DNA of 64,000 bases from NCBI GenBank assembly GCA_010015805.1, contig ML978124.1, positions 2,480,001-2,544,000 on the forward strand, given 5' to 3'. The notes under the pieces were generated by a model, which worked only from the letters and a program-made list of their open reading frames with translations, was not told where the DNA came from and made no database searches. This stretch comes from Rhizodiscina lignyota (taxonomy: Eukaryota). Shown piece after piece: positions 739 through 17,980 of this stretch (position 1 is the first letter of the stretch; each line of letters begins with the position of its first letter). The translations under genes were made by a program, and so were the position numbers.

Positions 739-3700
739 CTATCTCTGCTTGCTCCTCCGGACCAGAATCAGGAGGAAGAATGCGATAACGCGATAGGTCG
801 TGCCTATCCCAAGTAGCACGACCATATCCAACCAAAATCTGCCAAACACTAATCCCAAAGCTTGTGCTGCATCATCGATCTGCCATAGATAACTGACTGG
901 CATAACGTTCTCGCTGTAGTATACCTCCGCGATCCAGACACCAGGACTAGCTCGCCAGAGCCAAGTCATGTGCCATTGTGCGACCTGGTTCAGCGTTGGA
1001 GCGAAGCCCGAGAGAATACCAACGATCAAAGATGCCATGGTGGCAAGAAGTGGGCCGTCTTCGCGACGGGTGAGCATCGAAACGCAAGATGCGAGGCCGT
1101 AAATGCAGTAATAATACAAGAGGTTGACGACGAATGCTTTCAGCCAGTCTATGCGAGGCGTAGCAAGGAGCATGAAAAAGACTGTGAAATGATAACAACC
1201 GAGGATGATGCGAGGAAGCGTAGCAATGACTTTGCCCATGTAGTACGAGAAGCGGTTGTGGCCGGAAGCCGCCTCCCGGCGGTAGGTAAGCTTCTCCTCA
1301 CCAAACACCTTCACACCTGGGGCAGAAGAGGTAAGACCAAGTGCGATGGCGACGAGGAGCGCCAGGATAGAGAGGGTTTGGTAATCGATAGATGAAGAGA
1401 GATATATGTAGTCGTCGTGATAAATGCCATGGAAGAGAGCGCCGTCTTCGCCATTAAGCGCTAGACCAATCAGGAAGCCGGCCAAAGAAGCAACACCAAT
1501 CTCGAACCAGAATGCTGCTTTGAGTCTGTATTGCTGCAAGAAGCTTCGAAGCATACAGAAGTAGAATTGGGTATAAAAAGGGGCGCCACGTCGTCTTATC
1601 GACTTCTTAAGAGAGTGTTGTTCTCCATATGCACCCTGCATTTGGGACGGTCCTCGTGAGTCTCGATTTGTGGAAATGTTCGCCCAATGCTCGATCAGAG
1701 ATTCCTTCGAAGTGTCACCAGCCCGCTTGTATGGCCGTCCTGCACCTGTTATGATATCCATCAGCGTGTCGGCGGGATTAGAGTGCTCTGGAAAGTCAAA
1801 GCCTGCACGTTCGAAGTAGCCTTGTACATCGCGCTCCTTGCCCTGGTAGATTAGCCTGCCGTTGGCGAGAAGAATCAAATCGTCAATGGCATGGAAAATC
1901 TCTTCTCGAGGCTGGTGGATAATGGTGACGACCGTTATGCCAAGTCGAGCAAGAGCTGAAAGGATTTTCATTATATGCGAGGCAGCTGTAGCATCGAGTC
2001 CAGATGTCGGTTCGTCCAGGAACAGAGCCATGGGTGCAGCGGCAAGTTCCATGCCAATGCTCACTCGCTTCCTTTGACCACCAGAAATAACAGGCTTGAC
2101 AGGGCTGCCAACGAGTGAGTCTTTTACATGGCCGAGCTGGAGGCAATCAATGAGAATGTCGACATGACGCTGAATTTCTCGGTCACCCCAGTTGGACGGC
2201 AGCCGTATGCGAGCTGAGTGCAGGATATTTTCGCGTACAGTCAATTCTGCTAGGACAATATCATCCTGGGGGACATAGCCAATAATTTTCTTGTAACTGC
2301 GCAAGTTAATTATTAATCGAGTTGGCCTGGAACGTCTGCTGGCAAACTTACTGTGACAGCTTATCGCGTACACCATTGACCTTCACAGATCCAGTGTGCT
2401 TCTGCTTGCCCATCAACACATTGACAAATGTTGATTTTCCGGCGCCAGAGCCTCCCAAAATACCCACCAGCGAGCCTCGAGATATCTCGCCGGTAATGTT
2501 GGACAATACAGGCTTTGGTGCACCTTTTGGCCAAAAGCCCAGATTATCGAATTCGAATGACAGACCGAATTGTGCACCCTCAATGCATTTGGAAAGCGAG
2601 CCTACGAATTCTCTCAAATCCGTATTGCCCTGGTCAATATCCTCCTTACTGCTAGCATCATAGGCGGCAGCGTGCATATCAAATTGGAAGTCGTCCATTG
2701 GGCCCAGAAAACCTGTTGGTGCACGTTGCATAGATCTCACACGAGGCTCGAGCTGAATTGAATCGTCGTCAAGCGTCTTGTAGCCGGTAGTTCGCTTTTG
2801 AGGCATAGAGCGTATTATCTTCGAGAATCTCGATGGTTTCCCACCCCCGGGATTCTTGCGTTTGTCATTTCGACGCTTGATTATCCAGGCGAAAAAGGTG
2901 GCCACGATGAGACCGATGTCGACGATGACTAGAAAACAGAGCGGCAGCCAAGTCTGATCTTTGATTGAACCTTCATGGCAAATGCTACCGGCACTGCATG
3001 AAACGGGTTGGTATGACCCTGCTGGACAATAGCTCCCATAGGGGCATGTAATAGGTTGTCCAGAACCCAAATCTCTGGGACAGTATTTGCCTGAAGGACA
3101 TTTTAGTGGCTCAAAGTACCCCATGGGAACACCGCAGTCGGCTCCTCCCAGCCTCCCATGCAAGCATTGTTCGACTGGCGTGCAGTATTGAGGGAGTATA
3201 TTGATTGTAGCATTCTGGCATTGGAAGCCTGGGTAACATCCTGTCTTGTTCCACGAGGTTGAATTTTGTATCGTCAGGGGAAGCGCTCCCGAGAAGCAAG
3301 TGGCCGCGGCGGTTGGTGTCTGCTTGTTTGCTATCTGCTGTTGTGCGCCGTAGTAGGATTGTGACAGTTCTGTGACATTGTGGCCGGTGCACGCTCGATC
3401 GAAGATCGAGAGAGGATCCTTTTTGACAGAGTTGAGGGCGACAAGACTCTGTCGGGAGCCTGGTTCGGCGACGAACGCTGTGTGGTTGTTCGGTCGTAAC
3501 GAGTCGTCGTTGACGGCTAGTGCGTGAGGGTCGATGGCAGAATTGTCTGTCTCAGGTTTGTACCACTTCCCAGACACTCCCTGATAGATGTTCTGATTCT
3601 TCTTATTGCTTCCAAGACATCGCCATGCTGTCGTCTGGTCGGCACCCTGGAACTCTTGAAGTGCACACAGACAATTTCCCGAGTCGATGAATTGAGGGCC

Positions 3701-3748
3701 TTCAGGAGGGCTTTCGGAGAGCGGAAGACCAAACGAGCTGAGTGACAT
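739..3748 (-). CDS. ABCG-type half transporter with N-terminal Cys-rich ectodomain and extra TM helix
   Basis: Two ORFs joined by intron 2297-2351 (GTAAGT..GCAG). Walker A GGSGAGKST, Q-loop GYVPQDD, signature ISGGQRKRVSIG, Walker B LFLDEPTSGLD, H-loop IIHQPR, then a C-terminal TM domain. The N-terminus has CPxGxYCP-type repeats and a TM helix (WLPLCFLVIVDIGLIVATFFAWII). Start is uncertain (ATG 3748, or a possible upstream exon from ATG 3869). Confidence 0.9.
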
Positions 3749-4815
3749 TATCGAATGCAATTGCCGCTCCTCGAGTCTTCCAGCGGTGCTGAGAGACGTC
3801 CAAGATCAAAGGTATAGGAGGGAGGGAAAACGCGAGCCCGGAGGACGCGAGGAGTGTAGCGAGAGCCATCGTGCAGCTGAAATTATATTTGAACTAAATG
3901 GGCGTAAGGCGGAGTCGAGTACAGGCCAGAAATTAGCTAAACGCAGCGCTGGCCAGTTCGCAAGCGTGTGGCTGAAGGGTCAAACTGGATGCGGCTGCAA
4001 CGATATGCGTCTTTTCGTCCTAACATCGACTAACGTTGTTCCGACCTTATGCCAAGCTTGGGAACGTGCGCATCTTTAGCCAGAAGCGGCATAGCGCGTC
4101 CGCGGGACTGGCTATATTTGGGGGCTGTACCAAACCCTACAACACTCCACATCTCCCTCCAACAGGCATCTTTGCCCTCCTTCGCAACAGACGGTCGCTC
4201 CATGGACTGACTTTGCGAGATCTGCAGCCGGGGCGCAGTCTGTGCCCCGCGAGCGTGCTGCATAAGTGACGTTCCTTGGTGTCTTCATCCCATCATTTGG
4301 CTCCTTCTACTCTTCATCCGCTCTTGTGCTCAAATGCCGTCAGTCGTGGATCAACCTTGCTCAGCCCTCAGTTCTTGCCCATCGCATTCCTTCGTCGAGG
4401 AGCTTGTGAACAGTCTCGTCATCGCACAGGGAAAGAAGTGCCTTTCCGCTGTTCACGCGGCCTTTACACAACATGATGCGTTTCAAAAGTAGAAGTCCCT
4501 GATGTGGGATGCCGTGAGCCCGTCCAAGATATTCCGATCGAAGTTCGCGTTTCACTTCTCTCCCTTTTTGGTCAGTCACGTTATTTACCAAGGTATGAGG
4601 TCCTTGTTTCACGAGTTATCCATTTGAAGCCGGTATGAAATTTTCTACGAACATTCTTCGTTGGCCCTTGCATAAGCGCGTCAAAGCCAGGCAAATCTAG
4701 AATGTTCAGATTCCCAGTCAGAAGACTTCTCCCTGAGATTCTCAGGAGAATATTTCACGACTCTTTTGGGAGTTAAAGCAGCTTTGGGATCGAGTTATTG
4801 TGACATACTGCCACC

Positions 4816-7331
4816 ATGCCTAGCTTCGGGACGACGAACTTTAGGACAGCGCCATTTCAGCACGCTCGAGACGGATCCGGTGGTTTCGAGCTTGGCCATG
4901 ATGCGCCGGTGTACGACATTGAAAATGGAGTGGCTCAATCATTGCCGGCCCTGGACATGCTCACGCTCAGTGCTGAACGACTTCAATCACGTTCACCTGC
5001 CGCCGCTCTCAGCAACGGTGCAGACTATCTGCAGACAGGCCAGAATGCTCTCAACATCATCATTCCGATGGGTGGAGTCGGTCAGAGATTTGCAAAGGAA
5101 GGATACCGTCATCCCAAGCCTCTGATCAATATTGTGGGCAAGCCAATGCTCTGTTGGTTGATTGAGCGGCTCTCAATCTCTCCGATCGATACTCTCTGGC
5201 TTGCAATCAATGAAGATATTGATGATGAGTTTCATATTGGGGACAGTGTCAGGATCTGGTTCCCGAAGTGCGATGTGCGGCTTGTGCGTCTGAAGTATCT
5301 CACCAAGGGAGCTGCCGAGACAGTAAGTTCGTCTGTTTGAGGTTGGATTGTCACGCGCTAATATGCATAGGTGTTTATTGTGACCCAAAGCATGCCTCTA
5401 GCCCATCGTACCAGACGAACTGTCTCCTTGGACTGCGATACGATCTACTTTGCTGATATTCTAGAGGACGTTCGCTGCATGAAGAGTGGTCATGGTGGTT
5501 GCTTCTACTTCGAAGATCAAGGAAACAAGCCCATCTTTTCATATATTCAACTATGCGAGGAGACGGGGCTCATCACAGCCATTAAAGAGAAAGAAGCGAT
5601 CTCCACCAAGGCAAACACAGGAGCGTACGTCTTCCCTTCTGCTGAAACCCTCGGCCTATGGGCAGCAAGAACTCTCGACGGCATCCTCGAATCAGAAAGC
5701 AAGCAAGTCGGCGAGTACTATACGAGTCAGTTAATTTCATCGATGATTGCGAGTAAAGAAGTCCCATTCTGCGCATTGCACGTTCGGAAAGAAGATTTCA
5801 GCTGCGTAGGAACGCCTATTCAGCTCGAAGACTTCCTTCTCAGGATCCAGAGTCAGGATGCCACCGTCAAGCCTTCAAGCCGGCGATTTTGCTTTGACCT
5901 GGACAAGACGCTCGTCGGCCCACCTCAAGTGCCCGGAGACTATTCGACGTGTCCGCCAATTTGGAGAAACATCAAGCTGGCCCGAGCTCTTCACAAAGCC
6001 GGCCATAAAATTTTGATTCACACGGCTCGCAGAATGAAAACTCACAATGGAAATGTGGGTGCAATAATTTCAGACATTGGTCTCGTCACTCTTCAGAGTC
6101 TGGAGAGGTACGGCATCCCACATGACGAGTGCAAGTTTGGCAAACCATACGCAGATGCGTATATTGACGGTAAAGATATTCAATGCTGCAAATTCTAGTC
6201 GTGATATAGCTAATGCATATTCCAGACCTTGCTGTTCACGCCAATTTGGATACATTCCGAGAGATTGGGTGGCTCGCGGAGCAAGATGCTGCGTCTGGCA
6301 GCAACCTTCTGGCAGAAGTCCATCACGCACGCAAACAGGGCATGGCCCCAAGCCGTGCTTTCAATATTGTTCAAGTCCGCGGAGAGCAGATCATCAAAAG
6401 CTCGCAGTCCGAAGCCCATATCTTAGGAGAGATGTACTTCTACAGCCATCTTCCTGACTCCATCTCAAACCTGTTCCCACAAGTGCACGAGTTGACTTAT
6501 CTCCCGGAAACAGCAACGTACTCAATCACTATGCAGAGACTTCGGGGTACAACATACTCTCATATGATCACTGGGCGATCCTTAACTCCAGGCCGGCTCG
6601 AAATCATGCTCGGCGCTCTCCACCAAATTCACAATGCGGATACAGCAACAACGAAGCAGCTGGAGGTGTGTGAGTACCTGAAGGAAAAGTTTGCCTCGGG
6701 ATCATCGAAGCCAGTGAACATTTACGCGAACTACAGCCGCAAGCTGAAGCAGCGCTTTCATCAGCACGAGGAAGTTTACGAGGAGCTCGACCTGAAGAAG
6801 GCTTCTGAGACCCTCAACATGTTGACCGCATTCCTGGAGCGTTACGAAGCTGCCAATCGAGCTCTAGAAGTACCAGTCATTCACGGCGATCCAGTCTTTT
6901 CGAACATCATACTCAACGAGTCTGAGCGGAAAGTCTATTTCTTCGACGTTCGATCTCAGCAGGGCGATGCCCTGACAATGGCTGGTGATGTCTGTTACGA
7001 TCTTGCCAAGGTGCTGCAGAGCATCCAAGGCTATGACCACGTCATGCTTACGGACGAAGAGACGTTGTCAATGCTGCCACAAACTCCTGAAGCAGATGGC
7101 CTTGCTACCATCGTCCCGGTCCAGGACCGCTTGTTAATGAAAGAGATGCAAGAAGTGTTCTGGCGATTCGTTGAACGCGAATACGGAGCGAAAATCAGCA
7201 AGCAGGACATCCTAGACATTCTGGCCAGCTTGTTGTTTTCCCTTATTCCGCTTCATCGGAAGGAAAGGCGACCACTGTTCTGGAAGATGTGCCGCAATGT
7301 CTTGGAATTCGGGTCTGCATGCCCAGTGTAA
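4816..7331 (+). CDS. Three-domain nucleotidyltransferase / HAD phosphatase / APH-choline-kinase-like enzyme (~803 aa)
   Basis: Exons 4816-5322, 5371-6169 and 6226-7331; introns GTAAGT..ATAG and GTAAAG..CCAG both keep frame. Domain 1: IIIPMGGVGQRF..PKPLINIVGKPML..GAAET..DCD. Domain 2: FCFDLDKTL, HTARRM..GNVG, FGKP, YIDDLAV (the DD is created by splicing intron 2). Domain 3: IHGDPVFSNII, FFDVR, GDVCYDLAKVLQS. Confidence 0.88.
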
Positions 7332-7534
7332 CACGTTGCAGAGAATTAATTTTCTTCCCTTATTCGGCTGTTTTTGCTCTAATTGCTAATCTTTCCTGTC
7401 GTTTCGTGAGGAATGTCGGCTACCTACGCGTTTCGCGCGTTCTGGAATGTAGAATTGTTGCCACAAAACCAATGGTCAACATGCTTGATTCGTATTCATC
7501 ATAGATAATATTTTCAATATCAAACAGTTTCAAT

Positions 7535-9933
7535 ATGCTGTCACTAGACCTGAGCCATTTCATGACGCCGGCGTATGCTGCCGCTCTTGGTCTGATTGTC
7601 ATACAAACAGGAATTGGTATTCTCTTCAAGGCAGCCCAGACAGGTGGAAAGTAAGCATCATATCATCTTCGAGTCTTATCAATGGACTAACCTTTGGATA
7701 GATATGCATTCTCGTCTGCATCCTCAGTTGCAATATCGGAAACGTTGAAGTTCGCCTTATCCACGGTGCGCTTTTACAGGGAGCTAAGAAGCCGGCCGAA
7801 TCCTTCTTGCAATGTAACAACCAATACCACGTCGGAGAAGCTGGAGAGCGGCGAGAAAGATGAAAGCAGCCGACGAAATTCCGAATCAAATGAATCGGAC
7901 GAAACTTTGCTTAGCGATGTCGAGGAACAGGCAGTTGCCTCAGATGACGATGCTCGACTACACTTGCGCGACTGGAAAGACTTCGGCGACTGGAGAGCCT
8001 TCTGGCAATGCTATCTTGCAGAAGTTCCGTTGGAAACACGATACGGCTTTGCGCATCTAGCACTATTATATGTGCTCATCAACAACCTGGTTTTTGTGCT
8101 CTACCGTCTCTCCGACCCTGGTACCATTTCGCTCATCAAGTCTGGCGGTACACTGATTACAGCGCTGGTCATGTATATGTGCTTGGGCACGAAGCTTGTC
8201 AAGGGGCAGTGGCTTTCTATCTTACTTCAGGTACGATTCAACTAATTTCGAGCGCAAGCTTGAATCTAGCGCTAATATAATGCAGGTATCTGGTCTCATA
8301 GTCACCCAGTACGATCCAAAGAATGGCTCATCATACCCTCTTTCCACATACAGTGTCCTGTGGTTCCATACTCTACTCAGCGCTGTCTCCGGAGTTTACA
8401 ATCAGACTCTCTGCCAGGGCTCCAAGGCATCGCTTCACGCTAACAACATGGCGCTGTACGGTCCTGGTGCTGTTACCAACGTTTGCTACTACTTCATCAT
8501 CCGCATCCTGAAGCCCGATGAGCCCGGATTCTTTTCTGGATACACCAGTATTGGTGCATTAATGGTTATATTATCGAATGTCTTCATCGGATTGGCGATG
8601 ACCGCCGTATACCAATGTATGGCTTCCTTCAATATCTCGACAGTTGGTACACTACGGGAGGACTGACTATTCTGCAGATGCGGACGCTGTGATTAAATGC
8701 TTTGCTACAGCAATTTCCACTGGTATCTTGTTATATCTTTCATACTTGATATTCGGGGCGACCTTCTCTGCTCTCGCCATACCCGGTACAGCGGTTGTTT
8801 TTATCTCAACGTATATATACATGGATTCAACACCTCCGAAGGATAGCACAGCAGCGTCTGGATCAGGCAAAGATGCGATGAATTCTGGCCTGGAGGACAA
8901 CACTGATGAAGAAAATTTACTACAGAGCTTGACTCCCAATGTATGTGTTGAAATTTCTTGGTTCACCCTGTCACTTACGCAATCACAGGGCCATCGTCGG
9001 AGTCTCGGCTTCAGTATCACCTTTACCCTTTCTGCTATGCTCATCGCCTTGCTCACACTCTGGAACTCCCATCCTCCATCTAACCCCTCTCCTTCCCCCA
9101 AGCAAGGACCCCTCCAATCGCCCTTCCGCAATACCCTCGCAATCGTCCGCTTTGAGGACCAGTACGAGACCAGTGTCGCGCCCATGGTGCTTCAAGGCTA
9201 CTCGCCGTACTTCCACAGCATGCATCTTAGCCAGGGTAACTGGGAGTCAGATGAGTCAAACGAGTTGAACATTAGTCACGACTACTTTGACACCAATACT
9301 GCGCCGTACGCACCAGTTGCAAAGATCGCACAGAAGCTTCTTGAAGAACCTGACTCTGGAATCGAAGGGATCTTGTTCTTCAAAGATACATCCTGGCTCC
9401 GACCGTTGGCTTTCGCAGAAGATACGGAGCGTATGTGGCTGCTTGACAGCCCTGACGGCCGATGCTTCAGCGGCATCAGCGCCATGGGAGGCATGTCCAA
9501 CGATGATGGAGCCAACGTCGCACCTCGCCTTGCCGTACAAGCTGCCAACACAGCGCGCGAGATGGATACCAACTATGCGATTAATCAGAATGCCTGGTGT
9601 AGTGGATGGAGCGACATGTTCTATCTTCCGCGACGGTTCTTCAAGGATTTCGTATTCCTGGGGGATATCTTTGCCAGTACTTCAGTTCCGGAGCACACTG
9701 CCATTCCGACGATATTCCACATCATTGATAATACGTATCGTCGACATCCAGCCATGTCGCTGATTGAGTTGATCGGAGACTGCTGGAATCCTAAGCATGC
9801 TGAGAGTGAAGGTGGACTGGCGGCGGAGGAGGTTGTGTGGAGACGTTGCGGCCAAGGATTTGACTATGAGAATGAGAGCGTGGTTATTGCGCATTATGAC
9901 CGGCTGGAGGAGGACGCAGCTGGTATGGAGTGA
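7535..9933 (+). CDS. Nucleotide-sugar transporter (SLC35A-like) fused to a C-terminal lumenal glycosyltransferase-like domain (~727 aa)
   Basis: Exons 7535-7650, 7702-8230, 8286-8616, 8678-8940 and 8989-9933. Splice phases are compatible, and the last intron is 48 nt, in frame and stop-free. Transporter motifs: SETLKF, ALLYVLINNL, DPGTISLIKS, SAVSGVYNQ, GFFSGY, AVYQYADAVIKCF. These are followed by one more TM helix, a P/S stem and a ~270-aa soluble domain. Confidence 0.85.
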
Positions 9934-10022
9934 GTATGCTGAAGACAGTGTTTCGAACGTAAGAACAATTCATTATTGTTTCTATATATCGGCGTTCGGT
10001 AAATATTGGGATAAAGAATGAT

Positions 10023-11174
10023 CTATTTCTCGTACACCGTCCCTTCCGCTGCTCTCACAAGCTTAAGCTCCTCGTCCAATCTTTTGAAATGCGCCTCAGC
10101 AATGTGCATCGAAGTGGCATAGTTGAGTCGATGGCCACATCGTCTCCATTCGACATCCTCCGGGATCGAAACATCGAAACAACAACTACCCCAGCAATCG
10201 GACAGACGATAGATGACAGACCGCCAGGGGGTCTTTCTTCTCCTTCGATCAATTATGTTAAATATCGTCGGCGTTGCCATCTCATGAAAGACCTCTGCCT
10301 CCGTGAAGTACCGGCTCAGAGCGATGAAGTCGCCGAAATACTGGCGCGGGATGTAGTACATGTCGCTCCATCCTGTACAGTATTCTGGACTTCCCACATC
10401 ATATCCTTCGATGCCATTTGCGATGGCCCTGAGAGCCTTCCACATGCGCCCCTCGTTATCCTCGGGCGTTTGCAACCAGTGCCATTGCGGGTAGCGGCTC
10501 TTGTCCTTCATGCATACGTAGTATGGTGCCCCGTCCCCGACACCCATACTCGCACTGTCGAGAACCCAGATGCGCGTGAAGTCCATATCAAAGAACTTCA
10601 TCGGGTCGACCCACGCATCGAAGTGCATGAACCAAACGCCTGTGATGTTTTGTACGTGGCGGTCGCCTACGAAACCTTCAGGCCCTGAATGGCCGTCGTG
10701 AGTTGCCTCGATAGGTCCTTCGGAACTGGAATTCAGAATGGAGGCCATGAGATTTGCAACGCCTTGGTAGCCCGTCCAGAAGCTCCAATAGTTGTCATGT
10801 GTGATATTGAGGAAGTATTGCTCGCCCGAATCGACGACGTTATTCGGGTGAGAGATGTGTATTGTGTGAAAGAACGGCTCGTATTGCATCAGTAGTGGTA
10901 TCCTCTCCGGGTGTGCGTCGCTATTCAATCTAATATATGCCACAGTATTCTTGAATGGCGAGACATCTCTCCTCTCGCCGGGATTGTTATGCAAGTCGGG
11001 CCCGGATGGTGAAGGAGAGAGGGTGGACGATTCCCATGTCCGCCATACTTCGTCGTACTGCTTCTTAATGTTCGAGGAATCTTGCAAATAGATCACGATT
11101 ATGAGAGTGACAAGCAGAACGTAGAGATAAATGTTGTTGCGGTGAAGGCCGGATCTGTGGAATAAGGAACCCAT
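10023..11174 (-). CDS. Type II membrane putative glycosyltransferase, paralogue of the domain fused to the adjacent transporter
   Basis: Intronless 383-aa ORF with a short N-tail, one TM (IYLYVLLVTLIIVIYL), a S/P stem and a soluble domain with WFMHFDAW, GWSDMYYIPRQYFGDF, VFHEMATPTIF, DCWGSCC and RCGH. It aligns colinearly by eye with 9118-9933. Confidence 0.8.
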   Translation of the reverse strand: MGSLFHRSGLHRNNIYLYVLLVTLIIVIYLQDSSNIKKQYDEVWRTWESSTLSPSPSGPDLHNNPGERRDVSPFKNTVAYIRLNSDAHPERIPLLMQYEPFFHTIHISHPNNVVDSGEQYFLNITHDNYWSFWTGYQGVANLMASILNSSSEGPIEATHDGHSGPEGFVGDRHVQNITGVWFMHFDAWVDPMKFFDMDFTRIWVLDSASMGVGDGAPYYVCMKDKSRYPQWHWLQTPEDNEGRMWKALRAIANGIEGYDVGSPEYCTGWSDMYYIPRQYFGDFIALSRYFTEAEVFHEMATPTIFNIIDRRRRKTPWRSVIYRLSDCWGSCCFDVSIPEDVEWRRCGHRLNYATSMHIAEAHFKRLDEELKLVRAAEGTVYEK

Positions 11175-13022
11175 GTTGGACTAGTTACAAAAAGAAAATC
11201 AAAAGGAGAATTAGAAAGATACCGAATTGCCGGTGGTGCGTCTAAGAATCGCGAAAGACGCGAGCATGGATGCTGTGGAATGCATCTGCAATCCCTCGTT
11301 CGAGACCAGGGAGCAAGGAGATTGAGGCTGGCATTTGTATCTCAGACAATGAAAAGGCTTCCACCGGAGTTGTACGTGGTTATCGGGATCAACTGGATTG
11401 CATAACTTCGCTTCTCGAGCCGTTTGCTACCGTAAGGGATCATTTACGGTGGCGATGGGGCCCATCTCATCGGTTGAAGCCGCGGCCTGCTTTGATCGTC
11501 AACAACACTCTCAGAAGGATGTCGAGTGCTTTTAGTAAACTCCAATTTCAGCATCAGCTCTATAGTCAAGGAGATTTTCCATGCACCGAATTCAAGTTGA
11601 TCGAGCATATGGCAAGCTGTTGGTCGACGGTATTCAGGTCTGAAGACATTGAAGTGAAGTGACTTTGTTAGAGTTTTAGTTCATCGCCACCCGAAGCTCC
11701 ATTAACCTTATCACCCGGGCGTTGTAGCGTGAGAGTGAGACTGATCCATCTTCAAAGTCCAACGTCAAGGACCGCTTGATGTGTCGCAATTTAGGACATT
11801 TGTGGTTCGACAAACAAGAGGATTTGTGAAACCCAGTCTCAAAGTACATATTTACAGAAACCCTTCCCTAAGAAGGAGCCCCACACTTCTGCAACCGCGG
11901 AATGGGTGCTCGGCCCGTTCTTTGCTTTTGTGCTCGAAGCATATCCATAGTCCAGCATCGATTGCCCTACATATAACAAGGTCTGCCAGAGATGCCTGTC
12001 AGCAACGCAAACATACGAAAATTGTCGTCGTGCAGACGGTGATGCTCATCATCTTCAAGCGGCGCCCAGCCGTTGCGCCGAATGCCATCTCCGAACTGGT
12101 CGCTGCAGCAGCTTTGGATCATGTCCTTTCAAAACACAGATGAGACGATTCTCGAAGCCAACCATGACCAGTGTCTCGTACAGGCTCTAGATGCAAATCT
12201 GAACCTGATATTGGTATTATCTTGTAGCGGTTCCACAATGGAATCGATGGAGAGCTAATGGCCAAACCCATATTCTCCCTTCGTGTCTGACAATGGATTG
12301 GTGGGACTCGTATTTATCTATCAGGCTCATAGAGCATAAATATCCGACAGCAATATAGGATACCCTCCTCATCACTGTTGAAGTCATTCGCTAAAATAAT
12401 CATCGACCAGCACGGTACACTAAATCCAAGGTCTCATAGCTGCCGAGTATTAAGTTGTTGAAGGCTTTAATGTAGGTCTCTTTGCTCAGGCCTAAAGGAG
12501 AAATTCTTGAAGAATGAAACTAATCTAGTGCAATGTTACTAAATAAGGGATTTTGCCGGACAGTCTTTATACGATATGACGACTTCGATCTGTAACGACG
12601 ATAGAGTTTCGATGTGACGTTGGGTCTTGCTGCATTGACCAGGCTCTTTCGTAGTTTCTAGAAGCTCATTTCGATCGTCAGCACCTTGCGGGTGGATGTT
12701 CACATCACAACTCCTTAAACCGAAGAGGTAAACTATCATTTATCGATAGTTACAAAATCAATTCTGGCCTTTCGCGGCCTGGTATCATCGTGTAAAAGTG
12801 AATAAAAGAGGCCTCCCTGTAAAATAAATCCAACCGCCGCTTTTCCGAATCCCGAATCGGCTGTTTAACTGAAGCCATAAGCCTTAGCTCGCCGACAATT
12901 GGAGTAGTAATATCGTTAGAATCCCGGAACATAGCCGAAAAATGTTCATGAGTAAATCATGGATAAGAAGTAAGATCCTCCACTGCACTCCGGACACCTG
13001 AAATCCTCATCCGTACTCCATA

Positions 13023-16000
13023 TCACTCCGAATCATCGCCCAAGTCGATGAAATCCGGCATTCTCTCCTTCGCAGGTGTCTCCTGCCTCGCCAAGACAGG
13101 CTCTTGCGCGCTAACGCTCCTCAGCCTCTCTGTGGCTGGAGTCCTACTCGACATCCGCGAGTCCTTCGCTACCTCCTCCTTCGGCTTCCACTGCCCGTCC
13201 ATTTCAACAACAATAGCCCTTGTGTCTAGCGCATTCCTGTCTGCAAGCGCCCTGCGCACATCTACCAGAAACCCATCAACCACCAAATTCTGTGGTCTTG
13301 CATCCTCCTTGCAGATTGGACACGCCCACACATCAGGCTGGCTCACGACCGCTTCATTCGTATCCGGATCGTGGATGGTCTTGCGCGTCGCCAGGAACGT
13401 CTCAAGGTCGAAGCAGTCGCGGTGCCGGCATTTCAAGCCACGCACTGGGACATCGTAGATCGAGCATGCGGAGAAGGGGTCGAAGAGAGTGATGCTGAGG
13501 TTCGAGTCGATGATCGCGATGTCGTCGTCATCTGTCGATGGCGTAAGCGAAATCTTGATCGCATCGATGGACTGCTGTGCAGGGATGACAGCGGCGTCGA
13601 CGCACAGGCGGATTACGTCATGGGGCAGTGTTCTGACCATCTCGACGGCGAAGAGATACTGGAGTGGGGTAAGGTCAGTGGGAGGATAGTTGGCAGAGAC
13701 TTCAATTGTGTTTTTGCCCTCTTTGACGAATGGGGTGATGTCGATGGGTATGTCCTTGCCGTACGTTGACTTTTTCTTCTGTTCTGTCAAGTGTCCGTTT
13801 ACTTCAAAGTAGAGGTACGGCGGCCAGACGTTCTCGCCCATTGCCCATATGCTCTCGTCGTTTAGCACACCTTGCACTTTCCTGACGCAGCGAATACGGT
13901 ACGTGACCGCGTCGGGGAACATGTTACGGATGGGTGGCTCGCCACCTTCGGAAGGCATGTCCTGTGGTACTTGGGCGAAGACTTTAGCCGAGATTTCGAA
14001 GTCGCATGTCTTGATATATACGTTCTGGGGGAAGGCAAACGGAGCAAAAGCAAGGCCTGCCATGAACTGGTAGAGTTTTGGTTTGGTTGGCGAAGTGTTG
14101 TTCGCAGATAGCTCTCTTCTCTTCAAAGTCGGGCTGCGAAGGTGGGCGAGATGTAGTCCGCTTTTGTGGGGCTCAGGGACAAGTCGAAGTGCCTTTAGAT
14201 GGCCGACAGGAGGAAGTAGAGAGTTAGGAACAGACGGAGGAGGTTGCTGCTGAGAGGGTGCCTGCTGGTGATATACATGCAACTCTTCAGCGAGGTTTCT
14301 TTGTGCTGCAGTTTCCAGTGGTGCAGGCCACGGTTGCGGCGCGATAACCATCGTGTTCCACTGCTGAGCCGAACCTACCTGCGTCTGCACTTGTGCTGGT
14401 CGGAACATCGCCGCCGGGCCAGGAAGGACATGTTGTTGCGCCTGCGAGTTCTGCACTGGACCTGGTATCACACGTCCACCTTGTGGCTGGGCCTGTACTA
14501 GACTGTATGTGGAACGCATCGCATTTGAAGGGATCGGATGCGGATTGATCGAGACCGTCCCAGGGGGGAACATCCCAGGCGGCAGTTGCTGTCCAGGATT
14601 GCCAGTTGGGCTTGCGGGTTGTGAGAAGTTGTTGACTGGCATAACAGGCCGAACTGGATAGTTTGGGTCAAGTAATGGAGCGAGAGGACTGGTCTTCGGT
14701 TCAGCATTCAGGAGTGGATGTTCCTGATTATCTTGGTGAGAGCGTTGCAGGATTTGGTACTGTCGGATGTACCAGTGGTGAAACTCATCCACTAATGGTA
14801 CACTCATGCGACGGTTCGAATGCGCAGCAAGTATACGGTTCCACTCCTCTTGATTCTTCATGAATAGCTGTTCGGCCCTCCTGGACCAGCGGGATATACC
14901 CATTCCCCAGATGCAGCGTAAGATGGACAGGAAGACAACATTCTGAAGCACTGCCGAAGTGGCGCCAAGGATCTGCATGATTTCGTTCACTAGCGGTGGA
15001 TACTTTCGTTTTTGACATTCTATTCTGAACTTGTGCCAATTGACAACGATAAGAGTAGTGAACTTTCTGAAAGTCGAAAACTTGCTTTCAAACAAGCTCG
15101 GAGCAGATCGGGCAATCTCATGGAGCGGAGCAGGAAAGATTGTGAACCATCCAAGCACTCCTGAAGTGAGACTTTGATTCGGGGTGAGCAGAAAGTCCAG
15201 CGTCTCGCAAAGGGCTTGAAGTTGGGGTAATTCATGGATATACTGCGGTAGGGCGAAGTGATCAAAGGCTGCGAGGCAATATATCTGATGAGTCAAGAGG
15301 TATGTGATGTCTTGACGTTCGCTTGCCTGTCTTAGAAGGTTAATCCTCTGCTTCTCGAATTCACTAAGGGGCCGGATTCGATTATTGCTGGGACGGAGGA
15401 ACGAATCAATCTGTGCGATAAGCCGTTCTCGGTTGAACACTGCGTTCTGCTCGTGCTGCTGGAGCTGAGCCGGGACTGGACTCAATTGTGGGCTCACTTG
15501 TACGCGTGTGGGTGGACCAGACTGTCGCCGAAGATGCTGCGGGGGTTGTATTGGAGGTGGTACAGTTGGGCGATTGCTGGATGCTTGAGAGGCATGCTGC
15601 AAGTTTTGAGTTGACATCTGAGGCGCACTTGGGCGTCTACTTGGTACTTGAGGGGCGGGCTGTAAAGTTTGTATCGGGGGCCGAGGACCACTTGAGTATC
15701 TGATTGGTACTTGTGCAGATCGTTGCGGCCCATGAGACGTGGTAGATGAGATAGAAGGCCCATTGCCATGAGTAGTGGTAAATCGGGATTGCTCGTGCGC
15801 TTCTGGCGGACCTGGCGGCATAGAGCCCAGTGCAGAGCCTGGCTGCTGTAGCATTGGTCGACTTAGTTGATGACATGTACTTGCAGTATCCATGCTGCGA
15901 GATGGTTCTTGACGATACGCGTTTCCGACAACCTGTGCGCTACTGGTGCCTTGCGAGTGTCTAGAGCCAACATCATCATTATTGCCGGGTTCTTGGTATG

Positions 16001-16799
16001 TTTCTTCAAGATCAATTAAGATGGGCTCGTGAGCAGGCTCGGAAACAGGCGCAGGTTCTACTGCATCAATGGTGATTTGGCCCACCTTGGCAACAGTAGT
16101 TGGAGCTTCGGTCTGCCCGTCAGAATCAGTACGGCCATGATTCTCGCCACCTGCTGGCCACACTTCCGCATCGCCTGTCTCTTCTGAAAGATTGTGTATA
16201 TGTTGCATTAAACGTTGCCCATCGAGTCGAATCTGCTTAGACGGGGAAGTGGCCGGGTGCTCTCCAGGAGAGGCTGCGCGTTTAGGAGCTTGAGAGAGCG
16301 ACTTGGTGCGGCGTGTGATGTCGACCTCACTGGCCACGGTGGACGCATGTGCAGCATCTTCGCTCGTGCTTGGTGCAGGAGAAGGCAGGATGCTGCCCAG
16401 CACATTGTCTGCCTCTGCACTGTGCCTGCTACTCATGGTAGGGTTGGATCGCGAGGGAGGAGGCGGACTCGATTTCCGAGGAGCAAAGGAGTTTGGAAGC
16501 TGAGGAGAAGTGGAAGTCGAGGGCGTCTCGCGCGGAGCGACTCTGATCGTGTCATCTTCAGTCGGAGCTTGCCGTGACGTAGTTGTGGGTGGATTGCGCT
16601 GCTCTTGTTGTCGCCGCGGAGCAGGAGCATCACGTATTGCTGCTCTCGACGAAGGTGAAGAAGATGCTGCTGCTGCTCCACTCATCCATGACCTCGACTT
16701 GCCACCCAGGAACATGTTCAGAGTGGCATTGGAGGAGGCCAAGTGGTGTGCCACGGCTTGGTCCGACATATTGACGCTGGAGCGGCGGTGAGGAGACAT
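13023..16799 (-). CDS. MIZ/SP-RING zinc-finger protein (Siz/PIAS/Zmiz-related)
   Basis: 1258-aa ORF with a long P/Q/S low-complexity N-terminus. C-terminal SP-RING: ITLFDPFS..PVRGLKCRHRDCFDLETFL..WACPIC..LVVDGFL. Ends in a SIM-like FIDLGDDSE. Confidence 0.88.
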   Translation of the reverse strand: MSPHRRSSVNMSDQAVAHHLASSNATLNMFLGGKSRSWMSGAAAASSSPSSRAAIRDAPAPRRQQEQRNPPTTTSRQAPTEDDTIRVAPRETPSTSTSPQLPNSFAPRKSSPPPPSRSNPTMSSRHSAEADNVLGSILPSPAPSTSEDAAHASTVASEVDITRRTKSLSQAPKRAASPGEHPATSPSKQIRLDGQRLMQHIHNLSEETGDAEVWPAGGENHGRTDSDGQTEAPTTVAKVGQITIDAVEPAPVSEPAHEPILIDLEETYQEPGNNDDVGSRHSQGTSSAQVVGNAYRQEPSRSMDTASTCHQLSRPMLQQPGSALGSMPPGPPEAHEQSRFTTTHGNGPSISSTTSHGPQRSAQVPIRYSSGPRPPIQTLQPAPQVPSRRPSAPQMSTQNLQHASQASSNRPTVPPPIQPPQHLRRQSGPPTRVQVSPQLSPVPAQLQQHEQNAVFNRERLIAQIDSFLRPSNNRIRPLSEFEKQRINLLRQASERQDITYLLTHQIYCLAAFDHFALPQYIHELPQLQALCETLDFLLTPNQSLTSGVLGWFTIFPAPLHEIARSAPSLFESKFSTFRKFTTLIVVNWHKFRIECQKRKYPPLVNEIMQILGATSAVLQNVVFLSILRCIWGMGISRWSRRAEQLFMKNQEEWNRILAAHSNRRMSVPLVDEFHHWYIRQYQILQRSHQDNQEHPLLNAEPKTSPLAPLLDPNYPVRPVMPVNNFSQPASPTGNPGQQLPPGMFPPGTVSINPHPIPSNAMRSTYSLVQAQPQGGRVIPGPVQNSQAQQHVLPGPAAMFRPAQVQTQVGSAQQWNTMVIAPQPWPAPLETAAQRNLAEELHVYHQQAPSQQQPPPSVPNSLLPPVGHLKALRLVPEPHKSGLHLAHLRSPTLKRRELSANNTSPTKPKLYQFMAGLAFAPFAFPQNVYIKTCDFEISAKVFAQVPQDMPSEGGEPPIRNMFPDAVTYRIRCVRKVQGVLNDESIWAMGENVWPPYLYFEVNGHLTEQKKKSTYGKDIPIDITPFVKEGKNTIEVSANYPPTDLTPLQYLFAVEMVRTLPHDVIRLCVDAAVIPAQQSIDAIKISLTPSTDDDDIAIIDSNLSITLFDPFSACSIYDVPVRGLKCRHRDCFDLETFLATRKTIHDPDTNEAVVSQPDVWACPICKEDARPQNLVVDGFLVDVRRALADRNALDTRAIVVEMDGQWKPKEEVAKDSRMSSRTPATERLRSVSAQEPVLARQETPAKERMPDFIDLGDDSE

Positions 16800-17980
16800 G
16801 ATGCGACTCGTGCAGCGCTAGCAGCACACTATAAGCGATACTCGCCACGCTCAGCAGTGAAGCTATCCAATCCCCAATAATTCAGGTGTATGAGCAAAGG
16901 ATTGTGTTCAAGTGCGGGTCGGAGAAGTCTCATGTCTTTCCTCTCCGCGGACGCGGCGTAATTGTTTCACTGCTACACCTAGAGTCCCTGCCGGGTCGCG
17001 TTTGGACGGCAACCGGCGGTGAAGAAGAGAGGGAAGCGGCGTCCATGGGCGAGAGAAGATGGAGGATTGCATCTGAGAGAGAGTTGGGGCAGCGCGAACT
17101 TCTTTGTTCCCGCGAAACCAGGAGCTTCGGCGGCGCTGTATCGACGAGGTGAGGTGAGGTTGCACGCGAGGGAAAAAGCAAGGAAAGCCGCCGAACGCCC
17201 ACGCTCATTGGACGCCGGCTCTCCCCACATACATAGATGGACAGATTGCTAAATACTGCTATTCCAGCCTCGCTTCTAGCGCCGGCCTCTCGAAGAATGG
17301 AAGCGTCCATGCTCGCAGTGCACGCACGTTGGCTGTGCCAAAAGTAGCGGGCCCCAAGATGAGGATATCCGGGTGTCTCCTCCATTGGGCATGGGGTAAT
17401 ACGGCGCACAATATCGATGATTTGCCTTACACGCTCGTAGAGTGAGCATTGGCCGGGATGTGGCTGATATTGTGGTGTTCGTAATAGATACACGCGCCGC
17501 ATGCGGGCTAGCGGCGATGCGGCGCTTCGCTTCCTTCCCTGTGCTGCTGCTGGCCCAACCCAACCTCTCGTGCTGCAGTGCCAGCAATTCACTCTCTTCA
17601 TCCTCGCCCTTCCACCGCGACCGCCTGCACTCCTCCTCTCCGCACTCTGCCTGCTGCTCGCCCTCTCTATTTCCTTCTTGCTGCTCCCTCCCGACCGCTC
17701 GTGCGACGCCCCGCTCCACGTCCCGCCGGCTCCTAATCCCTGCCGAATTAAATCATCACTCACTCTGCTGAGTCTGCCACGCTTTACTCTCCATCTGCCG
17801 CCCTCTCAACCGCGCGCTCCCGAGCGAACGATCGCATTCACACTCCTCTGCAGCTGCTCGAGCTCCTCAACTCTTCACCCCTTTCACATGCGCCCAATTA
17901 TGGAAATTCCGAACCAACCGAGTTGATCCAATTGAACATATCAAGCCTCAGGTAGCCACTGGCAGTGGAAGTTCTGAAGG

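Follow-up and report, generated by a model that had tools for sequence, protein, structure and literature searches.

The window analysed here is a stretch of 64,000 nucleotides from the fungus Rhizodiscina lignyota (Eukaryota; NCBI GenBank assembly GCA_010015805.1, contig ML978124.1, positions 2,480,001 to 2,544,000 of the forward strand), and all coordinates below are positions within it. Between 4816 and 11174 it carries three adjacent genes that probably form one module, in which a nucleotide-activated donor is made, imported into the secretory pathway and transferred. Gene 1 (4816-7331, + strand) encodes a protein of 803 aa in three exons (4816-5322, 5371-6169, and 6226-7331) separated by introns at 5323-5370 and 6170-6225. 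Gene 2 (7535-9933, + strand) encodes 727 aa in exons 7535-7650, 7702-8230, 8286-8616, 8678-8940, and 8989-9933. Gene 3 lies on the opposite strand (11174-10023, - strand) and encodes 383 aa in a single exon without intron. Genes 1 and 2 are separated by 203 bp (7332-7534) and genes 2 and 3 by 89 bp (9934-10022). An earlier reading made without database searches (the sequence-only reading) had described three tightly packed genes with gaps of 203 and 89 bp, encoding a cytosolic kinase/phosphatase/nucleotidyltransferase fusion, a nucleotide-sugar transporter with a lumenal domain, and a type II membrane paralogue of that domain. The same coordinates were obtained from the sequence here, and the three descriptions are borne out by the domains, membrane helices, and paralogy set out below.

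The gene models were derived from stop-to-stop reading frames and the bases of the sequence, and their support comes from homology. All three are in frame with one terminal stop each, and the introns of genes 1 and 2 are canonical (GT..AG) with lengths of 48-61 nt. Over 737 aa, gene 1 matches a partial protein annotated by the source (P0026) at 100% identity, and it shares 54% identity, with 8 gaps in 742 alignment columns, with an intronless orthologue of 797 aa found in a metagenome locus (L013). In gene 2, the stretch 8941-8988 (48 nt) is in frame and faces gaps in all 18 of the 18 aligned homologues, for which reason it is interpreted as an intron. The exon junctions of gene 2 agree with the contiguous reading frames of L013.

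The product of gene 1 consists of a nucleotidyltransferase, a HAD phosphatase, and an APH-fold kinase, in that order, and contains zero hydrophobic or membrane segments according to a hydropathy scan. The nucleotidyltransferase domain (5038..5860, + strand, approximately residues 75-330, split by intron 1) carries the signature GGVGQRF...KPL. The Pfam model PF00483 (NTP_transferase) scores 21.5 bits on P0026, just above its cut-off of 21.2, and 29.5 bits on the L013 orthologue, and PF12804 scores 23.1 bits on P0026. A profile built from 22 homologous sequences matches PDB 4evw, an NDP-sugar (nucleoside diphosphate sugar) pyrophosphorylase, over the whole domain with an E value of 6e-16. The HAD phosphatase domain (5869..6240, + strand, approximately residues 336-440, its end spanning intron 2) shows the four motifs that define the superfamily, as motif I FDLDKT as well as TARR, GKPY, and YIDD (motifs I-IV) are invariant or nearly so in the 22 homologues. 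It matches PDB 1xpj, a HAD structure, with an E value of 1.2e-9 as a single sequence and of 4e-20 with a profile. The NCBIfam model TIGR01689 (EcbF-BcbF capsule biosynthesis phosphatase) matches exon 2 of gene 1 with an E value of 2e-12 and 47.1 bits against a cut-off of 162, four eukaryotic orthologues with 54-64 bits, and bacterial counterparts with 59-77 bits. As judged from these scores, the domain is related to the TIGR01689 subfamily without being a member of it.

The kinase domain (6228..7328, + strand, exon 3) appears to have an APH or eukaryotic-like kinase fold. In 16 aligned members from eukaryotes and prokaryotes, Lys57, Glu68, the HGDxxxxN motif (219-226), and Asp240 (domain numbering) do not vary. 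Pfam PF01636 (APH) scores 21.8 bits on the gene 1 kinase and 20.0 bits on P0026, both under the cut-off of 23.2, and is matched by 9 of the 16 aligned members with a best E value of 3e-8. Against the PDB, the kinase profile found generic kinases alone (best E value 0.018), and the nearest ESM Atlas clusters are bacterial and viral 'hypothetical proteins', a minority of which carry APH. The choline/ethanolamine kinase model PF01633 reaches 14.3 bits on the kinase against a cut-off of 29, with weak matches in 2 of the 16 kinase members, and the HddC equivalog model NF049965 reaches 21 bits on the nucleotidyltransferase against a cut-off of 300 (E value 1.9e-4). The sequence-only reading had compared gene 1 with the bacterial HddA/GmhB/HddC and LicA/LicC systems. 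By these scores, neither comparison holds as a statement of family membership, but the reaction logic of HddA/GmhB/HddC is the same. Homology describes the three modules as a sugar-phosphate nucleotidyltransferase, a small-cap HAD sugar phosphatase, and a small-molecule kinase, and goes no further than that.

Gene 2 is composed of a nucleotide-sugar transporter of the SLC35A type, one extra membrane helix, and a C-terminal domain that is presumed to be lumenal. The transporter part (7535..8830, + strand) matches PF04142 (Nuc_sug_transp, cut-off 27), to which exon 3 alone contributes 28.5 bits and exon 2 contributes 20 bits, and the L013 orthologue reaches 68.8 bits. For a further orthologue of the transporter (P0155), the nearest solved chains are CMP-sialic acid transporters (PDB 6oh4, 6oh2, and 6i1r) with E values between 2e-15 and 1e-13. 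Compared with these SLC35A transporters, gene 2 adds a long acidic loop, an eleventh helix, and approximately 300 aa of lumenal domain. The eleventh helix (9004..9060, + strand, residues 419-437) was located by a hydropathy scan after a linker and a basic GHRRS sequence, and a hydrophobic stretch occupies its position in all 18 of the 18 aligned homologues. This helix would place the C-terminal domain (9112..9930, + strand, about 300 aa) in the lumen.

The same domain forms most of gene 3, whose product starts with a basic N-terminal tail followed by one membrane helix (11073-11135, - strand, approximately residues 14-34, hydropathy scan) and then by the domain itself (10026-10973, - strand, residues 68-383). 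Gene 3 and the C-terminus of gene 2 share 29% identity over 302 aa with an E value of 7e-40. No Pfam or NCBIfam family matched the domain in either protein. A word-indexed search with the lumenal domain protein returned only 14 proteins of similar length, and among 1.84 billion cluster representatives a profile search recovered 750 matches with E values up to 1e-3 and 122 with E values up to 1e-30. A comparison of 96 other members, of which 45 exceed 600 aa, showed conservation of 85% or more in 52 columns. The conserved motifs of the family are HFDAW, CxGWSDxYYIPR, FHE, DCWGSCC, and RCGH, and a canonical DxD motif is lacking.

Gene 3 retains all 52 of the 52 conserved residues, and gene 2 retains 34. 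The residues lost from gene 2 include H184/F185/D186, H297/E298, G329/C331/C332, H348, and R91, among others, and the motifs that it lacks are HFD, HE, GxCC, and a terminal His. The copy fused to the transporter of gene 2 thus looks degenerate. Since it has lost so many conserved residues, the free paralogue encoded by gene 3 is the likely catalyst in this genome and probably represents the working transferase, and the fused copy may persist as a non-catalytic remnant or as a docking module. In the family as a whole, most members carry the transporter-domain fusion, and the free type II arrangement seen in gene 3 is rarer: in 16 of 20 metagenome loci, the transporter sits immediately upstream of the lumenal domain in the same orientation (the other four being two loci cut at the contig end and two distant relatives), and PF04142 precedes the lumenal domain in 17 of 21 scanned members (18 members longer than 600 aa and three that are shorter and more distant). 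Some gene calls of the fusion carry further domains. In two Ophiocordyceps species (P0145 and P0317) an extra C-terminal NAD-dependent epimerase/dehydratase domain is present, and in Purpureocillium lavendulum (P0314) a methyltransferase domain. These extra domains may stem from neighbouring genes that were merged in the gene calls, which would make such genes candidates for additional cluster members in Hypocreales.

The AlphaFold2 model of gene 3 has a predicted local distance difference test score (pLDDT) of 77.4 and a predicted template modelling score (pTM) of 0.74, and the HFD residues come after a central strand in it. In a Foldseek search, the model matched GT-A glycosyltransferases, including the catalytic domain of UGGT, B3GNT2, alpha-1,3-galactosyltransferase, and C2GnT, with probabilities of 0.9-0.99 and nine matches at E values up to 1e-3. 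In the ESM Atlas, the nearest clusters to the gene 3 domain are those of STELLO proteins (PF03385), with a feature score of 0.97 and structural template modelling (TM) scores of 0.71-0.72, and clusters of rotifer 'hypothetical proteins' lie close as well, with TM scores of 0.62-0.67. As these likenesses are structural and no match to STELLO exists at the level of sequence, the lumenal domain is treated as a new family with a putative GT-A or STELLO-like fold, outside STELLO itself. Homology to WavE proteins (PF07507) was also considered and rejected because comparison with six WavE proteins by hhalign gave a probability of 0.2 and no Pfam match was found.

A complex was also predicted for the lumenal domains of genes 2 and 3. 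Its score of 0.38, compared with 0.01 for the best of three controls, passes a mark that 51 of 78 solved complexes reach, as do 2 of 108 mismatched pairs. Scores up to 0.60 account for only 5 of the 78 solved complexes among those that pass, and all four passing mismatches (out of 180) fall in that range. The result was rated as weak support, with at least 67% contact agreement between the runs and a partner pLDDT of at least 74. A complex of both domains is a lead at most, as the pass of a pair of paralogues may reflect a tendency of the family to dimerise.

Conserved co-localisation, a check proposed in the sequence-only reading, came out positive for gene 1 and the transporter-domain fusion, both in metagenome loci and in named fungi. 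The three-gene arrangement of the sequence-only reading has to be narrowed in one respect: genes 1 and 2 are linked elsewhere, but a second, gene-3-like copy occurs in none of the 20 metagenome loci. As this copy is absent from all of them, the conserved core consists of gene 1 and the fusion gene. Six of the 20 loci extend at least 4 kb upstream of the transporter, and three of these six (L013, L016, and L018) hold a complete gene-1 homologue 0.8-2.2 kb from the fusion in divergent orientation; as L016 and L018 are nearly identical, this amounts to two independent cases.

Among named fungi, the best 120 of 1,002 matches of the gene-1 family were compared with the 68 proteins of the fusion family. 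A gene-1 homologue and a fusion were found on contigs of identical size in at least 12 species (13 pairs), and likewise on two contigs of 7,692 and 62,252 bases, where a shared contig is deduced from equal sizes, which is strong for small contigs and adjacent locus tags only and does not prove adjacency on megabase contigs. Among the named species, the shortest shared contigs are those of Emericellopsis cladophorae (166,691 bases), O. camponoti-leonardi (Ophiocordyceps; 167,136 bases), Whalleya microplaca (319,828 bases), and Ophiocordyceps camponoti-saundersi (410,415 bases, locus tags 2439 and 2432). They are followed by Sphaceloma murrayae (697,949 bases), Mollisia scopiformis (732,377 bases), and Tothia fuscella (875,672 bases). 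The megabase contigs belong to Oculimacula yallundae (2,623,305 bases, with the adjacent locus tags 13043 and 13044), Purpureocillium lavendulum (3,798,281 bases), Diplocarpon coronariae (4,351,934 bases), Xylogone sp. (8,210,761 bases), and Hirsutella rhossiliensis, which contributes two pairs (13,073,807 and 8,232,972 bases). The orientation of gene 1 and the fusion varies, being tandem in R. lignyota and divergent in L013 and L016, and linkage that is kept while the orientation changes argues for maintained clustering. Beyond the three genes, no gene is conserved between the surroundings in the window and the related loci.

That these genes sit next to each other by coincidence and serve three unrelated processes is very improbable: two nearly identical metagenome loci (L010 and L014) do hold the fusion without a nearby gene-1 homologue, but the linkage recurs in different orientations and in distant lineages, genes 2 and 3 are paralogues, and the related loci share no further conserved gene with the window.

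Gene 1 is not restricted to fungi. Over 1,000 proteins of its family are spread across Ascomycota, Basidiomycota (Rhodotorula), chytrids, aphelids, Capsaspora, bdelloid rotifers, and marine protists, and the fused type also occurs in bacteria, archaea, and contigs of giant viruses. The idea of a fungus-specific enzyme has therefore been dropped. A scan of prokaryotic genomes found 94 relatives, which share 22-34% identity with gene 1 and are homologous to approximately residues 73-773 of the fungal-type protein. Of these, 80 loci were kept, with carriers such as Legionella, Nitrospira, Pelagibacter, Prochlorococcus, Planctomycetota, Verrucomicrobiota, candidate phyla, and Thaumarchaeota. The three-domain fusion in the same order as in gene 1 is present in 7 of the 80 loci. 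Most of the loci instead contain an operon of a kinase fused to a nucleotidyltransferase-like domain, a HAD gene, and a nucleotidyltransferase gene, or a fusion of HAD and nucleotidyltransferase. Their neighbours are genes for surface polysaccharides, including ABC-2 exporters (Wzm/Wzt), glycosyltransferases of families GT2 and GT4, epimerases, aminotransferases, and flippases, which fits a role of the module in donor synthesis. A WavE (PF07507) protein directly adjoins the module in 23 of the 80 loci. In eight Nitrospira-type loci (L076:9606-10652, L086:10004-11170, and six others), a conserved protein of approximately 350 aa lies between the three-module operon and the WavE gene and shows a faint match to DUF7796 (25.3 bits against a cut-off of 27).

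In viral contigs (IMG/VR), 117 relatives of gene 1 were found, 55 of them full-length fusions with 30-39% identity (e.g., L111:8001-9959 and L122:8001-9881), and many belong to metagenome-assembled genomes of giant viruses. In the 79 loci that were kept (L108-L186), the neighbours include open reading frames that resemble the bacterial GT4, epimerase, and aminotransferase neighbours in local BLAST searches as well as recurrent frames of no recognised family. A profile comparison did not find the lumenal domain among six recurrent viral neighbour families. In a quick tree of the gene-1 fusions (29 rows, with Shimodaira-Hasegawa-like approximate likelihood-ratio test (SH-aLRT) support only), the seven bacterial fusions and the 22 eukaryotic ones lie on opposite sides of a branch with a support of 94, and the order of the fungi is roughly species-like. 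This pattern fits old vertical descent with losses, without proving it.

The bacterial module also reaches E. coli. A DNA search from a Legionella operon matched two E. coli genomes, and a search with WavE DNA matched 9 of 5,426. Four E. coli loci, out of the nine genomes with a WavE match, were inspected (L104-L107 on NZ_CM184353.1, NZ_CP025842.1, NZ_CP101010.1, and NZ_CP116925.1). All four are situated at the O-antigen site, after galF or wca genes and, where shown, before gnd, and all four contain a nucleotidyltransferase, a two-domain kinase, a HAD protein, wzm/wzt, a GT2 protein, and a WavE protein. The RefSeq label of the module's nucleotidyltransferase, 'glycosyltransferase family 2 protein', is apparently a misnomer. 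In NZ_CP116925.1, wzm/wzt carry the RefSeq name of an 'O92 family' O-antigen export system.

Based on these observations, it is fairly probable that the three fungal genes act as one module. In the cytosol, the single polypeptide encoded by gene 1 would carry out three steps that yield a nucleotide-activated donor from a sugar or sugar phosphate. Its kinase would add a phosphate, the HAD phosphatase would take off another one, thereby moving the phosphate to the position required for activation, and the nucleotidyltransferase would couple the product to a nucleoside monophosphate. The transporter part of gene 2 would then bring the donor into the lumen of the Golgi or the endoplasmic reticulum, where the GT-A-like, STELLO-like domain would pass the residue to glycans of the secretory pathway. 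In most fungi, the working lumenal domain would be the copy fused to the transporter. In R. lignyota, gene 3 would probably serve as the catalyst, possibly docked on the degenerate copy of gene 2. The order of the steps, their chemistry, and the nature of the donor and the acceptor are proposals of this scheme. The self-contained glycan-modification module postulated by the sequence-only reading is backed in this form by linkage, fusion, and the prokaryotic homologues in polysaccharide loci, and this backing is comparative in kind.

Several observations weigh against the scheme. The family scores of gene 1 are marginal, as PF00483 passes by 0.3 bits and both APH and TIGR01689 stay below their cut-offs, and the kinase is without a characterised close relative, so that its substrate is not readable from homology. 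The matches of the gene 3 model to GT-A folds have TM scores of only 0.28-0.39, and neither PF03385 nor another credible Pfam match was detected in 23 members of the lumenal family, including genes 2 and 3, at E values up to 1. L010 and L014 lack a gene-1 homologue within approximately 8-10 kb on either side of the fusion, and L009 lacks one within 4.3 kb upstream. Local hidden Markov model searches and the scan of viral contigs found no homologue of the lumenal domain beside the bacterial or viral gene-1 homologues, and the fungal domain is unrelated to WavE (hhalign probability 0.2). Taken together, these last two findings suggest that the donor-making module is conserved and that the transferase differs between lineages.

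As to the identity of the donor, the E. coli loci provide a lead. The O92 antigen is described in passages of PMC7685785 as a linear homopolysaccharide with a two-residue unit that is made by the ABC-transporter pathway, and a title in the reference list of the same paper calls it a 'new fructan'. Assembly of a fructan in the cytoplasm calls for activated fructose, and no genes of that cluster other than the three modules are candidates for donor synthesis, so we infer that they make nucleotide-activated fructose there. The WavE protein and the GT2 protein of the O92-family cluster would then be fructosyltransferases. In other bacteria, passages of PMC8858990 refer to KfoE of E. coli K4 as a fructosyltransferase, and the 849-aa protein HS1.08 of C. 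jejuni HS:1 is reported in passages of PMC7901785 and PMC11924219 to be necessary for activating and transferring fructose. E. coli O95 and O97 contain D-xylulofuranose, for which passages of PMC7685785 state that the genes for the nucleotide precursor are unknown. D-xylulofuranose is thus another ketofuranose without a known donor pathway.

By analogy with GmhB, a ketose route could start with the conversion of fructose 6-phosphate to fructose 2,6-bisphosphate by the kinase, followed by its hydrolysis to fructose 2-phosphate by the HAD domain and by the formation of NDP-fructofuranose by the nucleotidyltransferase. A fructose-2,6-bisphosphate 6-phosphatase activity has been reported. That the fungal donor is a nucleotide-activated fructose or another ketose, most likely fructofuranose, is a tentative assignment, which is rated low because the identity between the fungal and the bacterial proteins is only 22-34%. 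The link to fructose is further weakened by the fact that it draws on E. coli proteins with 22-32% identity to gene 1, a RefSeq product name, and the title of a paper known from a citation, and by the kinase gene of the 'O92 family' locus (NZ_CP116925.1), which appears broken. The broader version is doubtful as well, namely that the gene-1 family makes a nucleotide-activated ketose, most likely NDP-beta-D-fructofuranose, and that many filamentous fungi import it and add acid-labile fructofuranose to secretory glycans by means of a new family of transporter-fused, STELLO-like transferases.

An aldose that is activated by the same logic via a bisphosphate would be an alternative donor, for example a heptose as in the synthesis of GDP-D-glycero-alpha-D-manno-heptose. 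Kinase, HAD phosphatase, and nucleotidyltransferase are indeed the established order of reactions of HddA, GmhB, and HddC, and the gene 1 domains do show weak similarity to this system: the nucleotidyltransferase to HddC (NF049965 with an E value of 1.9e-4, PDB 5xhw and 6jq8 with 4e-4 to 6e-4) and the HAD domain to HAD-IIIA, the subfamily of GmhB. All matches of the HddC type are, however, far under their cut-offs (21 bits against 300), and enzymes acting on mannose 1-phosphate or glucose 1-phosphate as well as GlmU-type enzymes score just as well. The kinase appears to have an APH fold, whereas HddA is a GHMP kinase. No sedoheptulose 7-phosphate isomerase was seen among the Pfam-annotated neighbours in the inspected bacterial loci, nor does the fungal cluster contain an isomerase. 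The heptose pathway is of use as a working analogy only, and an aldose donor is unlikely.

A slightly less likely option still is a CDP-activated alcohol phosphate or phospho-substituent of the ribitol phosphate, glycerol phosphate, or choline phosphate type, with a lumenal domain that acts like FKTN/FKRP or LicD. The transporter is closest to CMP-sialic acid transporters, but these are the only members of its family with solved structures, so the nearest structure says little about the substrate. The nucleotidyltransferase weakly matches cytidylyltransferase models of the MobA/IspD type and the kinase weakly matches the choline kinase model, the latter with 14.3 bits and thus far under the cut-off of 29. 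The analogy to LicA/LicC drawn in the sequence-only reading fits such a donor, yet that route has no role for a phosphatase, and the lumenal domain resembles GT-A and STELLO folds rather than LicD.

Gene 1 and the transporter might also cooperate with a lumenal domain that is not a transferase and instead converts nucleotide sugars or assists or regulates another enzyme without being catalytic, a role that has been discussed for proteins of the STELLO type. According to passages of PMC4906169, STELLO proteins have no known catalytic activity and bind cellulose synthases, and their glycosyltransferase region resembles GT75 mutases. The lack of a canonical DxD motif, with HFDAW as a conserved motif, and the retention of the gene 2 copy despite its many lost conserved residues would agree with such a role. 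Against it stand the 52 strongly conserved positions, among them His, Asp, Glu, and Cys, across 96 members, which speak for catalytic activity of the canonical copies. Use of the imported donor is the simplest explanation for the fusion to a transporter, and the best fold matches are active glycosyltransferases. A function other than transfer is thus considered improbable.

With transfer of an imported donor retained as the preferred reading, the cluster can be compared with known systems. The prokaryotic kinase/HAD/nucleotidyltransferase module of O-antigen and capsule loci, including the E. coli O92-family loci and the relatives of PDB 1xpj and 4evw, holds the same three modules as gene 1 beside glycosyltransferases and exporters. 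Unlike gene 1, it consists mostly of three separate genes and often has a second nucleotidyltransferase-like domain on the kinase. Its partner transferase is often WavE, and it needs no transporter step, in contrast to the fungal cluster. The lumenal domain shares its type II and lumenal placement and its glycosyltransferase-like fold with the plant proteins STELLO1/2 (PF03385, formerly DUF288). Passages of PMC4906169 describe STELLO1/2 as type II proteins of the Golgi with a lumenal glycosyltransferase-like domain, DxD motifs that are needed for function, and an unknown donor. The fungal domain differs by the absence of a sequence-level match (0 of 23 members), by its motifs, and by its usual fusion to a transporter. 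Among fungi, the closest parallel in arrangement is glfA/glfB of Aspergillus, where the gene of UDP-galactopyranose mutase adjoins that of the UDP-galactofuranose transporter, so that donor synthesis and Golgi import are neighbours. There, however, other and characterised enzyme families are involved, with neither a fusion of transporter and lumenal domain nor a trifunctional enzyme.

Donor synthesis, import by SLC35 transporters, and transfer in the lumen constitute the textbook scheme of the Golgi. What is new here is that all three places are held by families without a characterised member, that the transporter is physically fused to the enzyme presumed to use its cargo, and that the donor enzyme is a three-in-one fusion common to bacteria and giant viruses. 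In line with the statement of the sequence-only reading that no characterised fungal pathway of this kind is known, a full-text literature search found no description of the fungal genes, of the 'capsule biosynthesis phosphatase', or of PF07507, and as most subscription journals lie outside the reach of that search, the absence is not proven.

The linkage offers a direct handle on the function of three protein families, and a single biochemical assignment would provide an annotation for thousands of genes, among them those for bacterial O antigens and capsules. The carriers include plant- and insect-associated fungi (Colletotrichum, Fusarium, Metarhizium, and Ophiocordyceps), whose surface glycans shape host recognition. 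The combination of a fused transporter, a degenerate copy, and a free, putatively active paralogue would also be a case of substrate channelling in the Golgi and of pseudo-enzyme evolution. Should the product be a ketofuranose, standard acid hydrolysis would have destroyed it, which would explain why no such fungal glycan is known. If NDP-fructofuranose is the donor, the cluster would represent the first nucleotide-ketose glycosylation route in eukaryotes and the long-missing donor pathway for bacterial polysaccharides with fructose, namely the O92 fructan of E. coli and perhaps those of K4 and C. jejuni HS:1. In combination with other transferases, the same route would extend to chytrids, rotifers, Capsaspora, and giant viruses.

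The surroundings of the cluster in the window contain genes of other kinds. Divergent from gene 1, the first exon of an ABC-type ATPase gene (PF00005, 33.4 bits) occupies 2348-3805 on the - strand and continues to the left. Upstream of the ATPase part, this exon encodes an N-terminal region that is Cys-rich and apparently extracellular, together with a membrane helix. In the related loci, nothing was found that links this gene to the cluster. On the other side, the approximately 1.8 kb upstream of gene 3 (11175-13022) has no long open reading frame and the lowest G+C content of the region (0.43-0.46), and it is presumably promoter or intergenic DNA. It is followed at 13026-16817 (- strand) by an open reading frame of 1,264 aa with an abundance of Pro, Ser, and Gln. 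Close to its C-terminal end, a MIZ/SP-RING zinc finger scores 32.8 bits, narrowly missing the cut-off of 33.5, and the product is probably a SUMO E3 ligase unrelated to the cluster.

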